The translations under genes and the position numbers were made by a program. This document shows, piece after piece, positions 45,482 through 56,579 of a DNA stretch of 60,721 bases. The stretch is from a virus. Its lineage: Duplodnaviria; Caudoviricetes. The DNA lies in the IMG/VR virus record IMGVR_UViG_3300032307_000402, positions 1 to 60,721 of that record. One strand, given 5' to 3'. The notes under the pieces are model-generated. The model was not told the origin of the DNA, made no database searches, and worked only from the letters and a program-made list of their open reading frames with translations. The first letter of the stretch is position 1. Each line of letters starts with the position of its first letter.

Positions 45482-45826
45482 TTATTCTACTAGATTCCAA
45501 GATGTGTCCTGTTCGTTCCATAAGTAGAACCTCTGATCTGTTGGATATGGGATTGGTGGTTCCCAGCTACAAGTCTCTTCGTTTAAAGTCCATGAGAGAA
45601 ATGGCTGTGGTGGAATAAAAGCATCCAAATCTTCGTCATACTTGTATCCTATTCCAGCATAGTTCTTGCGAATGTTGCCGTTGTAGGAGGTACGAACGCA
45701 ACGTTGACCTCTGAACTCACCATACCAGGTCTCAGGATCTTTGTCTTCAATTAACTCATTTTCATCAATACCAGGAATTACCTCTGTTACGATGTTGTTT
45801 TCATCTAAAAATGCATAGTGTGCCAT
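45482..45826 (-). CDS. Small fibre-associated partner protein (cassette 1)
   Basis: MAHYAFLD, YAGIGYKYD and FIPPQPFLSWTLNEETCSWEPPIPYP; paralog of 48566-48871. Confidence 0.7.
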   Translation of the reverse strand: MAHYAFLDENNIVTEVIPGIDENELIEDKDPETWYGEFRGQRCVRTSYNGNIRKNYAGIGYKYDEDLDAFIPPQPFLSWTLNEETCSWEPPIPYPTDQRFYLWNEQDTSWNLVE

Positions 45827-45837
45827 ATTTTTCCTTC

Positions 45838-47553
45838 CTAGCTAAAGCTAATATTTCCTGTTCCTGCTGTAAATATAGTTATCTTATCTGTACCAATGGT
45901 AGCTGTAGTAAATGATAATCCAGCACCACCATTTACATTAAAGGTAGATGGATATCTAATAATAACTGTTCCAGATCCGCCTGAGTTTCCTCCATTAACA
46001 TACCCTCCACCAGCACCACTGCCAGTATTTACTGCTCCAGCGGTTCCTGCTAGAGCTGGACCTCCAAGACCACTACCACCAGTACCGCCACCGCCTTGAC
46101 CACCAACACCACCAGCATTTGAATCGCCACCGCCACCGCCACCACCAGCTCGGATCACAGATGTGCCAGTGATATTAGACGCAAGGCCATTGCCTCCACG
46201 ACCACCTCGCAAGTTTACTGCAGTTTGCTGACCAGTTTCACCAGCACCACCACCACCTCCACCACCTCCGATGAAGCTAGGGTGCTGCCTAGAGCCACTA
46301 AACCCTTGATTAGCAGTACCAGCAGCTCCAGCGTTTTGCTCATACGAACCGCCACCAGAACCGCCAGTATTTCCATTTATTGCACCAAAACCACCGCCAA
46401 TAGACGTGATTGTTGCAAAAACTGAGTTGGAGCCATTTACACCAACTGATCCTCCAGAACCACCAGCACCAACAGTTACAGCATAATTAGTAGCTGTAGA
46501 TAAGCTTAAACTAGGTTCAGCAGCAGCACCACCACCAGATTGCCCTACGCTAGTTCTGTAGCCACCAGCACCAGCACCACCACCTGTAGTATTCGTTCCA
46601 CCGCCACCAGCGATGACAAGATAATCAACTGCTACAGTCTGTATAGGTGCAAACTGAATCGAACCAGTGCCAGCAGTAAAGGTTGTTACCTTATTGTTTC
46701 CAACTGTGGCTGTTGTGGAAGTAAGACCTGCACCACCTGTAATTCCGTATTGAGATGGATATCTAAGTATAACTATGCCAGAACCACCAGAACCTGTAAC
46801 AGTTCCCTGTCTTTCACCAGAACCACCACCTCCACCTGTGTTGACTGATCCACTAGTGCCATTAGCCCAGCCACCAGCACCACCACCGCCTGCACCACCC
46901 ACAGTTGTATCTCCAGAAGACTCTGTAGATCCACCGCCACCACCAGCTCTCATTACTGAACTTCCTGTAATAGAAGAGGCTAAGCCGTTTCCGCCATTTC
47001 CACTAGATGATGAAGTAGATCCATCCCCTCCTGCCTGGCCTGCACCACCACCACCACCGCCTACCTTTCCAGGACTTGAGCCACCACCACCCAGAACATA
47101 AGCTCCTCCGTTAAATCCTTGTCCAACTGTGCCAGAGCCACCAGAAGATGGGACTCCAGACTCAGCCCCTCCTCCACCACCAGAACCACCATTTTTACCA
47201 TTTCTGCCAAGCTGATAGACACCGCCACCACCGCCACCAACAGATAAAATTGTTGAAAAAATAGAATTTGACCCATTATTACCAGGACTTGTATGAGGTG
47301 GTGGAGTAGCTGCTCCAGCCCCTACGGTCACAGCGTAGTCTACAGATGGTTGAGCAATAAATATTGACTCTGCAGAAGTCCCTCCACCAGAAGACTCTCC
47401 GATCACGGATGAGCGATAGCCTCCTGCACCACCACCGCCACCATGATATTCATTTGATGCACCAGACCCACCGCCAGCAATTACAAGATATTCAACGCTT
47501 ATGCCTGCTGCCTGTGCTGATGCTCCCAAAACTCCACCCAGAATTCCAGGCAT
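45838..47553 (-). CDS. Glycine-rich two-repeat adhesin-like protein (cassette 1 passenger)
   Basis: Two units running from V[ED]YLVIAGGG to G[IT]VI[LI]RYPS; start ATG 47553 in a TAATG overlap. Confidence 0.75.
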   Translation of the reverse strand: MPGILGGVLGASAQAAGISVEYLVIAGGGSGASNEYHGGGGGAGGYRSSVIGESSGGGTSAESIFIAQPSVDYAVTVGAGAATPPPHTSPGNNGSNSIFSTILSVGGGGGGVYQLGRNGKNGGSGGGGGAESGVPSSGGSGTVGQGFNGGAYVLGGGGSSPGKVGGGGGGAGQAGGDGSTSSSSGNGGNGLASSITGSSVMRAGGGGGSTESSGDTTVGGAGGGGAGGWANGTSGSVNTGGGGGSGERQGTVTGSGGSGIVILRYPSQYGITGGAGLTSTTATVGNNKVTTFTAGTGSIQFAPIQTVAVDYLVIAGGGGTNTTGGGAGAGGYRTSVGQSGGGAAAEPSLSLSTATNYAVTVGAGGSGGSVGVNGSNSVFATITSIGGGFGAINGNTGGSGGGSYEQNAGAAGTANQGFSGSRQHPSFIGGGGGGGGAGETGQQTAVNLRGGRGGNGLASNITGTSVIRAGGGGGGGDSNAGGVGGQGGGGTGGSGLGGPALAGTAGAVNTGSGAGGGYVNGGNSGGSGTVIIRYPSTFNVNGGAGLSFTTATIGTDKITIFTAGTGNISFS

Positions 47554-54670: not shown

Positions 54671-55936
54671 TTAGCATGCAACAAGAGTTGTGCTTGTTGA
54701 ATCGGTACAGTCAGAAAAATATGTTGTTACATACCTATATCTTCTTCTGTTTCCAAGGCTTCCAAGATTACATGGTCCAAAAGTTGTTACGCTTCCAGTG
54801 CAACATCTAGTTTCTGACTTATCGTAAAGATTACAGTTAAGGCTACTAACACAGTCTGCATAACGATTTTGACGAGTTCCTGGTCCATTTCCAGAACATG
54901 TTGGGCTCCAGCTACTCCAAGAACTGCAAAATGCTATGCAGCACTCAACTGTTTGCTGATACGTATATCTACTGCAATCTGTGTATATCTCTGTCACAGT
55001 CCTAGTCTTTGTTCCTGGAGCTAATCCAGTTGCTGTACAAGAGCTATAGGTTCCATAAAGAGTATCTCTGGGGCAAGCTGGAGCAGGTGGAGTATATGTA
55101 CAACAAACACGATCAACCACCGTACTTCCATCAGAATATGTCCTTGTTCTGGTTCGTATACCATTTCCATTAAAGTAACAATTTATACCAGATGAACTAA
55201 GTTCTGGATTACCAGATTGAGTACAATTTCCGAATGAGGTGTTTTCTAGTGTTGGTTCTGGTGGCGGAACACATCCAGTGGACACTGTTTTGTTTGGTGG
55301 TACGCATCCACTTGGATAAATATCTGTTCTATAGTAGCCCTGTCCAGAAGAACAATTAGTATTTGCACCCTGGTAGTTTTTACTGTCTACCACCGTAGTA
55401 CATGTAACACATGATGGATGAAAGTCATCTCTTCTTGGAGTCAATGGCTCATAATAACATTCAACTGCTGGCTGATCTTGAAGAGTTAGCGTCCATGTGT
55501 AGTTACTTGGATTTTCTACGTAAACCTTTCTTTTATCAATACGCTCATAAACTTTAAATAGTGGAGTTACTAGCGTGGTGCCTTCACAAGAAGCTGCCTC
55601 TGTTGTAGTGCTTGTTGTTGCTACGCAGTTGCCAGGAATAATTTGACCATCATCAGATGGCTTTGGTGGGTATGATGGTGGAACAAATGGTGCTTCATAA
55701 CGATATCTTGTTATAGAGACAGTAGTTTCATAGTCAACAAGGGTGTCTGGTAGGATATTTTGATTAGCAACTTTATCTTCTAATGAAGAGTCTGCAACTA
55801 CTGTATCAGAGAAACCGCCATAGATTAGACCTGCTGCTTCAATAGCTGACTGTGCAGCTCCTCTGGATAGACCAGAAAGGTTTGGTACCCTGACCATTCC
55901 TTTTGCAGATGCAAACCTACCTCCAACACCTAGCAT
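54671..55936 (-). CDS. PASTA-domain protein with Cys-rich thrombospondin-1-like repeats (cassette 3 passenger)
   Basis: PASTA motif VPNLSGLSRGAAQSAIEAAGL...VANQ; WSSWSPTCSGNGPGTRQNR; 26 Cys by manual count. Confidence 0.75.
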   Translation of the reverse strand: MLGVGGRFASAKGMVRVPNLSGLSRGAAQSAIEAAGLIYGGFSDTVVADSSLEDKVANQNILPDTLVDYETTVSITRYRYEAPFVPPSYPPKPSDDGQIIPGNCVATTSTTTEAASCEGTTLVTPLFKVYERIDKRKVYVENPSNYTWTLTLQDQPAVECYYEPLTPRRDDFHPSCVTCTTVVDSKNYQGANTNCSSGQGYYRTDIYPSGCVPPNKTVSTGCVPPPEPTLENTSFGNCTQSGNPELSSSGINCYFNGNGIRTRTRTYSDGSTVVDRVCCTYTPPAPACPRDTLYGTYSSCTATGLAPGTKTRTVTEIYTDCSRYTYQQTVECCIAFCSSWSSWSPTCSGNGPGTRQNRYADCVSSLNCNLYDKSETRCCTGSVTTFGPCNLGSLGNRRRYRYVTTYFSDCTDSTSTTLVAC

Positions 55937-55943
55937 TTTTCTC

Positions 55944-56579
55944 CTATGCCGTTAGGTCACCCATTAAATACCAAGTATTTGCAGCTTTCTTTACTATAAT
56001 TGCTTGAGAATATCTTGATGCTGTTTTTCTATTTGAGTTTTTACTCAAAAGAGATACAGTGTTTGTGCCATCAGTAGCAGGGACAAATGTTACCTGACCA
56101 GTACCAGATTGAATTACAGCAATCTGTGTTCCAATTGTAAAATTAGTTACACTGTCTAATGGAATTGTTATGTTTATTGCAGAAGAAGAGTTAGCCTCTA
56201 TTGTTCTTCCCACATCCGTTAATCCAATAGTAAAACTGGCAAGCTTTTCTGATAGATATGCGTTATCTGTAAATACCCTCCAAGATCCAGCATAATAATA
56301 TTGTAATTCCATAACATTGTTAACAGGAACAAATGCGAAAGCACCATTTATTGGAGATGGAATCTTAGTAGATCTATCTGTAGCACTTGTAAATGCGTTT
56401 AATCCATTAGAGGCTACAACTGGAGCTGCAGAAGTGATTGAACCAGCTGCAGAAAATGTGTGGTCTCCGCTCCATGCAAAATCTGCTGAAGCATCTGTCA
56501 TACCAGCTACTGGATACCAGGTATCAGATGCCTCATCATAAACGTATGTTATCTTGCCTATATTGCTAATCGTTGCCAT
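55944..56579 (-). CDS. Fibre/adaptor protein (cassette 3 adaptor)
   Basis: ITIPLDSVTNFTIGTQIAVIQSGTG and KKAANTWYLMGDLTA; start ATG 56579 in a TAATG overlap. Confidence 0.7.
   Translation of the reverse strand: MATISNIGKITYVYDEASDTWYPVAGMTDASADFAWSGDHTFSAAGSITSAAPVVASNGLNAFTSATDRSTKIPSPINGAFAFVPVNNVMELQYYYAGSWRVFTDNAYLSEKLASFTIGLTDVGRTIEANSSSAINITIPLDSVTNFTIGTQIAVIQSGTGQVTFVPATDGTNTVSLLSKNSNRKTASRYSQAIIVKKAANTWYLMGDLTA

Follow-up and report, generated by a model that had tools for sequence, protein, structure and literature searches.

Three adaptor-passenger gene pairs in a fibre-like block

We analysed the whole IMG/VR virus record IMGVR_UViG_3300032307_000402, a stretch of 60,721 bases with an estimated completeness of 56% that is hereafter called the window, and concentrated on three pairs of adjacent genes in a fibre-like gene block at 45-60 kb. 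The first genes of the pairs, which we call adaptors (A1, A2 and A3), end in a C-terminal domain (C-domain) that is shared by A1 and A3 and probably by A2. The second genes, called passengers (P1, P2 and P3), begin with a short leader followed by unlike bodies, and each is followed by a small gene (S1, S2 or S3; Table 1). An earlier note on this DNA had read the region as three copies of a tripartite cassette, in which the adaptor captures the N-terminal peptide of the passenger and the small protein serves as chaperone or cap. The nine open reading frames (ORFs), their coordinates and the C and N termini that it quoted are as it gave them. Of its interpretation, the two-part adaptor-passenger form is partly supported, by circumstantial evidence; the tripartite form is not.

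PHROG scans of the window identified a portal protein, a head maturation protease, a head protein, a DNA polymerase, a 2307-aa tape measure protein and a 1433-aa minor tail protein, a profile that indicates a long-tailed phage. Nearly all window genes lie on the minus strand, and no tRNA genes were found in the 60,721 bases. A megablast search with window positions 45000-57000 returned no match in the phage collection; at the DNA level, none of the cultured phages is close to the window.

The junctions of the three pairs read TAATG for A1/P1 (-1 nt), TAA-a-ATG for A2/P2 (1 nt) and TAG-gagaaaa-ATG for A3/P3 (7 nt), as described earlier, and there is a Shine-Dalgarno-like purine run at each of them. 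The -10 boxes that had been placed at the cassette boundaries are at chance level, with 41 promoter-like sites versus 36.0 +/- 5.9 in shuffled sequences.

Table 1. Genes and domains of the three pairs and the small genes that follow them (window coordinates)
Feature	Position	Strand	Description
A1	47553..48533	-	326-aa tail fibre: Mtd_N N-terminus (E 9.4e-11), fibre motif, C-domain; tail-fibre PHROGs
A1 C-domain	47556..47855	-	residues 227-326; profile aligned over 227-322
A2	50094..50561	-	155-aa short fibre piece: fibre motif at residues 9-58, divergent C-domain (probable); tail-fibre PHROGs
A2 probable C-domain	50097..50363	-	residues 67-155; hhalign
A3	55944..56579	-	211-aa adaptor: N-terminal hairpin, small anchor-like domain, C-domain, no other body
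A3 C-domain	55947..56264	-	residues 106-211
P1	45838..47553	-	571 aa, from the ATG of TAATG: leader and two Gly_rich_2 domains
P2	48881..50092	-	403 aa: leader, LamG (Laminin_G_3, E 1.2e-13), C-terminal module
P3	54671..55936	-	421 aa: 13-aa leader, PASTA (E 3e-6), Cys-rich variable body
P3 leader, candidate docking peptide	55898..55936	-	residues 1-13; best-conserved stretch of the P3 family
S1	45482..45826	-	114 aa; phrog_7759 (E 1.3e-40)
S2	48566..48871	-	101 aa; phrog_7759 (E 1.4e-7)
S3	54390..54638	-	82 aa, after P3; no PHROG match

A C-terminal domain shared by A1 and A3, and probably by A2

The C-terminal domains of A1 and A3 are 30% identical over 92 aa (BLASTP, E 1e-8). We built a profile of the domain from A3 orthologues and from fibres of a second type described below, and a hidden Markov model (HMM) iterated on 85 distinct sequences recognized both A3 (E 6.5e-37) and A1 (E 3.6e-23). 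A search of the whole record for the domain returned exactly two copies, those of A1 and A3.

A2 is a more distant case. Its N-terminal fibre motif matches that of A1 (BLASTP, E 4e-11), but its C terminus gave no BLASTP match to the C-domain of A1 or A3 and was missed by the iterated HMM at E <= 10. In an hhalign comparison, however, the last 89 residues of A2 align end to end with the profile, with matching landmarks (E 1.3e-5, probability 81%). Against a prebuilt profile the hhalign score was 26.3 (E 3e-4), compared with a mean of 11.7 (standard deviation 2.7, maximum 22.6) for 60 shuffled sequences, and A2 ranked third among 48 window ORFs, behind A3 and A1. Residues 55-155 of A2 have no homologue among proteins of 85-272 aa, and hence there is no A2 family profile, so that its membership is judged from a single sequence against a profile. 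We thus regard A2 as a probable, not a firm, divergent member of the family. The shared domain reported in the earlier note is real for A1 and A3, and the third copy is probable.

A3 has 53 full-length homologues of 211-224 aa, and the last block of their alignment is the best conserved, with a mean pairwise identity of 0.92. No Pfam model matched A2 or A3, and Pfam and PHROG scans revealed no recognizable virion anchor in A2. For residues 60-105 of A3, the resemblance to the N-terminal parts of tailspikes reaches only Z 4.9-5.0. The N terminus of A3 has a hairpin-like motif, Y-x-Y-D-x-x-x-x-x-W, in common with the C terminus of a 157-aa protein (56579-57052, minus strand), and a similar motif also ends S1 and S2.

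Passengers with unrelated bodies and their leaders

Judged by the families they match, the bodies of P1, P2 and P3 (Gly_rich_2, LamG and PASTA) are mutually unrelated, in agreement with the earlier description. The TSP1-like part that had been ascribed to P3 was not recovered, with no TSP1 Pfam family detected in this protein at E <= 0.1. Gly_rich_2 occupies two stretches of P1 (E 5.4e-26), the sole PHROG match of which is phrog_2295, a family of unknown function (E 6e-85).

The leaders of the three passengers are alike in composition. Small and hydrophobic residues account for 11 of the 13 residues at positions 2-14 in each of P1, P2 and P3, the top score among 60 window genes, tied only by a 406-aa gene at 57045-58265, by a criterion chosen after the fact. 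A reading of the leaders as signal peptides was considered; their hydrophobic runs are of at most 11 residues and Gly-rich, as judged by eye. The 406-aa protein is encoded on the minus strand upstream of the A3 group and has an uncharged start of small and hydrophobic residues; it matches a baseplate wedge PHROG only via a repeat (phrog_2885, E 8.5e-15).

Identity within the P3 family is 0.56 in the first 20 columns of the alignment and 0.15-0.30 beyond about column 100. As the last block of A3 and the first columns of P3 are the best-conserved parts of their families, the island of conservation extends across the boundary between the two genes. Modelling of P3 residues 1-90 gave a confident PASTA fold at residues 14-80, with residues 1-10 as coil at a predicted local distance difference test (pLDDT) score of 55; the leader is thus predicted to lie outside the PASTA fold. 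We considered whether the C terminus of A3 might be conserved as part of the ribosome-binding site of P3 and rejected this explanation: the Shine-Dalgarno-like run overlaps the stop codon, about 19 nt separate the start from the conserved GDL codons upstream of it, and the residues are kept across phages of very different hosts.

A leader similar to that of P2 was found in front of another body. In a related contig (L004), a 136-aa C-domain protein overlaps its partner gene by 1 nt, and residues 1-12 of the partner are identical to the P2 leader at 7 of 12 positions. The likeness to P2 is confined to these first 12 aa, and the body of the partner is Gly-rich, not LamG. At its other end, P2 residues 220-403 are 46-48% identical to the C termini of a 536-aa protein in contig L003 and a 545-aa protein in L004. 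This P2 module (48881-49540, minus strand) is of about 180 aa; the proteins with its counterparts (L003:8640-10250 and L004:15160-16797) differ from P2 in their N-terminal parts and are not preceded by an adaptor gene.

A complex prediction for three copies each of A3 residues 100-211 and P3 residues 1-90, with a 53-row alignment per protein as input, gave scores of 0.02/0.01 against a mark of 0.32, a 3:3 assembly being unlike those on which the tool was calibrated; we counted the outcome neither for nor against binding.

Fold and distribution of the C-domain

An AlphaFold2 model of A3, computed from 65 sequences, has a mean pLDDT of 84 and values above 90 across residues 106-211. In comparisons with VIA-align, its best match among solved structures was the C-terminal knob of gp52 from Pseudomonas phage Pa223 (Z 14.4, root-mean-square deviation [rmsd] 2.3 A over 99 residues; model residues 101-211 versus chain residues 196-294). 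A baseplate protein of Klebsiella phage KP1 matched the C-domain at Z 10.5, residues 79-180 of the N-terminal part of CBA120 TSP4 (TSP4-N) at Z 8.5, T4 gp9 at Z 8.3 and residues 47-155 of T4 gp10 at Z 8.0 (rmsd 3.2 A, 93 aligned residues). The whole A3 model aligns with TSP4 residues 3-182 at Z 9.2, and A3 therefore resembles a tailspike that ends after its front part. Foldseek searches with the A3 model recovered both TSP4-N (E 2.5e-5) and Pa223 gp52 (E 1.7e-8). As modelled, the C-domain is a widespread beta-sandwich of the fold class that includes the attachment domains of T4 gp10/gp9 and CBA120 TSP4 and the Pa223 gp52 knob.

In a viral structure library, 413 predicted structures matched the A3 model at E <= 0.001, the top-ranked ones being uncharacterized, minor tail, collagen-repeat and Mtd_N proteins. 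A profile search of 1.84 billion representative proteins found 38,719 clusters with the C-domain at E <= 0.001 and 21,151 at E <= 1e-10. Among the best 150 of the 38,719 representatives, the last copy of the domain ends within 5 aa of the C terminus in 114.

Some library proteins continue past the domain. In P0162, a C-domain at residues 1770-1856 is followed by a Gly_rich_2 domain at 1902-2144 according to Pfam; a BLASTP comparison of this protein with P1 gave no match, so that the fusion is identified by the Pfam call only. P0150 has a beta-helix after the C-domain, P0142 has a GDSL esterase, and others continue as collagen-like fibre. A further protein, P0165, in which a Gly-rich domain seemed by eye to be fused to the C-domain, was dropped, as Pfam detected no Gly_rich_2 in it and BLASTP comparison with P1 returned nothing.

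Genes that follow the C-domain in related phages

The gene neighbourhoods of the domain were compared in 80 related viral contigs and the window, which together hold 112 C-domain ORFs. The domain ends within 2 aa of the C terminus in 110 of these. A co-directional gene follows 80 of 81 A3-type genes, at a distance of 3-13 nt, the lone exception lying at the end of its locus, and one also follows all 31 other C-domain genes. Conservation of the gene neighbourhood, a check named in the earlier note, was thus found for the adaptor and the gene after it.

The partners of the A3-type genes are of one kind. A leader and the KGM motif that opens the PASTA domain are present in 78 of 80, and complete P3-type partners range from 106 to 702 aa. 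The 31 other C-domain genes, referred to as second type or class II, encode fibres of 136-896 aa. Comparison of 16 distinct class II pairs showed conservation in the final 120 aa of the fibre (identity 0.55-0.82) but not in its shaft (about 0.30). Of three class II partners that were scanned, two are fn3 proteins. By eye, a basic Lys/Arg/Gly peptide opens about 25 of the 31 second-type partners; the Gly/hydrophobic N-terminal peptide of the earlier note therefore describes the passengers of the window and is not a general rule.

The domain is also present in eight cultured phages of other groups. It lies at the extreme C terminus in seven of them, namely a PinkBerry-associated phage, Gordonia phages Sidious, Bizzy and Jojo24, Marinobacter phage PS6, Ruegeria phage vB_RpoS-V10 and Actinomycetia phage DSL-LC01, and not in Pseudomonas phage PMBT3. 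The next gene overlaps or is at most 3 nt away in six of the seven. Among the partners in cultured phages are an RCC1 propeller and a protein that bears the annotation of a photosystem II assembly factor; fn3, beta-propeller and RCC1 were the types seen among the partners scanned. In Shewanella phage S0112, the ORF directly after the gene for the 143-aa domain protein gp87 encodes about 739 aa and starts with a hydrophobic/Gly leader. This ORF (L085:4387-6603, MK675901.1) is unannotated in the record. Fifteen contigs of metagenome-assembled genomes (MAGs) yielded 13 ORFs with the domain at the C terminus, 11 of them with a partner.

Gaps of at most 15 nt follow 81% of 101 C-domain genes versus 39% of 1435 other genes, a rough comparison in that orthologues are not independent and ORF calling was crude.

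Small genes do not complete a cassette

S1 and S2 are paralogs (E 2e-11), as had been noted, and belong to phrog_7759, a family of small marine and freshwater phage proteins of unknown function. The weak similarity of S3 to them that had also been claimed was not found: BLASTP gave no match between S3 and S1, and an hhalign comparison of the S3 family with the S1/S2 family gave a probability of 8.7%. By tblastn, S1 has relatives in 39 phage records, which come from a wide range of marine groups.

These data bear on the tripartite form of the system, in which an adaptor socket and a passenger would be joined by an obligatory small chaperone or cap (S1 to S3). The kinship of S1 and S2 would fit such an arrangement, as would some of the neighbourhoods: an S2-type gene follows the P2-type C-terminal module in three of three cases (window, L003 and L004), an S1-type gene follows a Gly-rich protein in two of two (window and L007), and S3 relatives occur after P3 relatives in 11 of 80 related loci. 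However, S1/S2 relatives are present in only 3 of the 80 loci, and S3 is not demonstrably related to S1 and S2. Furthermore, in the four cultured phages with annotated regions that we inspected, phrog_7759 genes lie beside metabolic-type genes (S-SSM5), peptidase genes (Greip and phiPsal1) or structural genes (CRP-143). Annotations around the cultured C-domain genes contain no matching small gene, although no search for S1-S3 was made there. The conservation of gene neighbourhood found for the pair thus does not extend to the small partner, and we consider an obligatory third component highly improbable.

As a rule, then, the small genes do not form a third component of the cassette. The associations of S2-type and S1-type genes suggest instead that they may serve particular passenger bodies: S1 and S2 travel with certain body types and may act as accessory factors for them. 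In contig L007, a 136-aa ORF that looks HNH-endonuclease-like by eye (L007:16505-16915) lies inside the fibre module, between a C-domain cassette and a Gly-rich protein.

Another small gene is found next to S3. An 86-aa Cys-rich protein (54130-54390, minus strand; phrog_13558, E 1.1e-14) has relatives in 73 of the 80 related loci (74 with the window included), in most cases immediately downstream of the P3 relative. Near the PASTA gene its conservation far exceeds that of S3, and a role as a zinc-binding accessory factor is possible.

Proposed docking of passengers on the C-domain

We propose that A1 to A3 are adaptors or fibres whose C-domain docks the leaders of the passengers, so that exchangeable receptor binders would be supplied by the next gene. 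We lean towards this reading and give it a somewhat better than even chance. According to this proposal, the gene right after each adaptor would encode the distal receptor-binding protein (RBP), with a Gly-rich, LamG or PASTA/Cys-rich body. The passenger would be held at the fibre end by its short N-terminal leader docking on the C-domain, and adhesins could be exchanged while the part fixed to the tail stays unchanged. The leader-domain binding, its stoichiometry and the presence of the passengers in the virion are steps that we infer.

A number of observations weigh against this proposal. The closest solved structure, the Pa223 gp52 knob, is a free one, with no partner reported in the available text of its description. 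The Z values of 8-9 to gp10 and TSP4 are close to what the tool rates as common, and the link is one of fold only: the domain profile had no significant sequence match among solved structures and none to T4 gp10 or TSP4, the best sensible match being Pa223 gp52 at a marginal E of 0.14. The C-domain often occurs in tandem arrays of 2 to 22 copies, and 29 of the best 150 representatives have more than 60 aa, that is, more fibre, after the last copy; the domain can therefore be a plain structural bead. Class II partners are conserved over their whole length (0.41-0.60) and are not of the peptide-on-variable-body kind, and leaders fall into several unrelated types. Synteny among orthologues is not independent evidence. 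Lastly, the gaps between adaptor and passenger are as the earlier note gave them and yet are not special: intergenic gaps throughout the fibre operon are at most 38 nt and several other gene pairs overlap, so that tight spacing by itself says little here.

Several of these points would suit the main rival explanation, that the C-domain is a free terminal knob, serving as a trimerization device and/or a receptor-binding tip, and that the downstream proteins attach elsewhere and are next to it because fibre genes cluster. The best structural match is just such a C-terminal knob, the domain also forms tandem arrays, and tight spacing is general in the operon. Moreover, two adjacent window proteins of 237 and 371 aa share an N-terminal tag and have no C-domain gene upstream. 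On the other hand, receptor-binding tips are usually the most variable part of a fibre, whereas the C-domain is the best-conserved part of A3 and of class II fibres, and hypervariability sits in the downstream gene. A3 has no other body. In addition, the same leader is found on different bodies after two small adaptors, and fused forms put binding or enzymatic domains directly after the C-domain. All in all, we consider the knob explanation unlikely, if well short of negligible.

Alternatively, the downstream proteins might, like Tfa or T4 gp38, be chaperones of fibre assembly, acting on or bound to the C-domain, and not adhesins. Their genes lie directly downstream of a fibre gene, and the A3 model resembles a fibre chain of a chaperone-substrate complex (6o38, Z 7.8). 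This explanation appears quite improbable, as the window partners are large (403-571 aa), their relatives and they themselves carry binding-type modules (LamG, PASTA, Gly_rich_2, fn3, RCC1 and beta-propellers), the C-terminal parts of partners are hypervariable, and no chaperone family appeared in the Pfam and PHROG results for P1-P3 or S1-S3 at the thresholds applied.

The docking proposal can be extended beyond the window. Carriers of the C-domain include phages of Actinobacteria and Proteobacteria and phages of uncultured freshwater and marine hosts. The C-domain and the leader of the next gene might be a general end-on coupling device, with shafts and adhesins mixed across the boundary and with fused and split forms interconverting, a generalization that we put forward tentatively and find more doubtful than probable. 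If it is true, then for a very large proportion of uncultured phages the adhesin is an unannotated gene that follows the annotated fibre, and not that fibre.

If docking itself is true, the determinant of host range is the gene after the fibre, not the fibre, and this holds for many carriers of the domain, including cultured Gordonia, Ruegeria, Marinobacter and Shewanella phages. It would improve the annotation of RBPs in metagenomes and explain mosaicism at the junctions of fibre genes.

Other features of the fibre block

The only convincing plus-strand genes of the window lie inside the fibre block, at 52966-54149. One encodes a 224-aa protein that matches NlpC/P60-type tail-lysin PHROGs (phrog_329, E 7.5e-25), and the other a 170-aa protein with no family match.

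The adjacent genes for the 237- and 371-aa proteins (51092-52936, minus strand) are 68% identical in their first 28 residues and then diverge. They are a second tag-plus-variable-body pair, one without a C-domain gene upstream. The body of the 371-aa protein has repeated S/T-x-D-G-x-x-W motifs and looks beta-propeller-like by eye.

Some features hint at the host. The window has a PASTA domain, an NlpC/P60 lysin and a guanine-plus-cytosine content near 40%; C-domain relatives are found in Gordonia and Actinomycetia phages; and related contigs (L092, L096-L110) were binned with freshwater MAGs, one of them labelled Aquiluna. A freshwater actinobacterial host is possible for the window phage.

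Comparison with known systems

In the lactococcal siphovirus TP901-1, the C-terminal part of BppU holds the N terminus of an adjacently encoded RBP, BppL. Among the window proteins, no likeness to BppU was observed, and BppL_N Pfam matches were found only in two unrelated library proteins.

A second point of comparison is the fibre tip of T2 and S16. There too, a separate adhesin gene adjoins the fibre gene, gp37, and its product, gp38, is located at the fibre tip. The receptor-binding domain of gp38 is glycine-rich, like P1 with its Gly_rich_2 domains. In contrast, the tip of gp37 is unlike the window C-domain, and the likeness of P1 to gp38 is one of glycine richness; no gp38 family is among the PHROG matches of P1. 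The accounts available to us describe gp38 as a modular receptor-binding protein at the distal end of the fibre.

Pa223 gp52, whose knob matches the C-domain best in structure, likewise has this part at its extreme C terminus. In the available text of the report, the knob is described as a free distal tip and called a TNF fold by its authors (10.1101/2025.06.11.659172). It differs from the window domain in sitting on the capsid, where a trimeric spike bears it at its free end. An atlas of fibres, in the portion accessible to us, considers that C-terminal heads are possibly adaptors for a tip adhesin (PMC12143355). We found no publication on this C-terminal domain or on such gene pairs in long-tailed environmental phages, which does not establish that there is none.

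The closest parallel to the proposed architecture is the anchor-branched RBP system, exemplified by K1-5 gp37 and its two tailspikes, G7C gp66/gp63.1, CBA120 TSP1-4 and RBP1/RBP2 of Klebsiella phages KP32 and KP34. In the sections that we consulted, a branching domain and a conserved peptide are given as the interacting partners of such systems: the first protein, which has a T4gp10-like branching domain or is no more than an adaptor, carries a second RBP through the short conserved N-terminal peptide of the latter, and K1-5 gp37 and its counterpart in phage 2044-307w are first proteins that consist of the adaptor only, without a binding body (PMC6872550). The pairing of domain and peptide was experimentally validated in the podophages KP32, K11 and KP34 of Klebsiella, according to the part of the report available (PMC13352976). 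The window resembles these systems in having a first protein with a beta-sandwich of the gp10 class, at the level of fold only, and, in the P3 family, a conserved N-terminal peptide on a variable body; class II partners do not share the latter feature.

The differences are several. The window domain is at the very C terminus of the first protein, so that attachment would be end-on and not as a side branch. The window phage is long-tailed and likely has an environmental host, unlike the enterobacterial podoviruses and myoviruses of the known cases, and its passengers are not depolymerases. The domain is without sequence similarity to T4 gp10 or TSP4, and docking is here only a proposal. The earlier note knew of no name for the architecture; in its two-part form, as far as the accessible text goes, it has been published as the anchor-branched or adaptor RBP system (PMC6872550, PMC13352976). 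Thus, the setting is new and the concept is not. If docking is true, a modular architecture of enterobacterial podoviruses and myoviruses extends to long-tailed environmental phages, and the gain is one of breadth and annotation rather than of principle.

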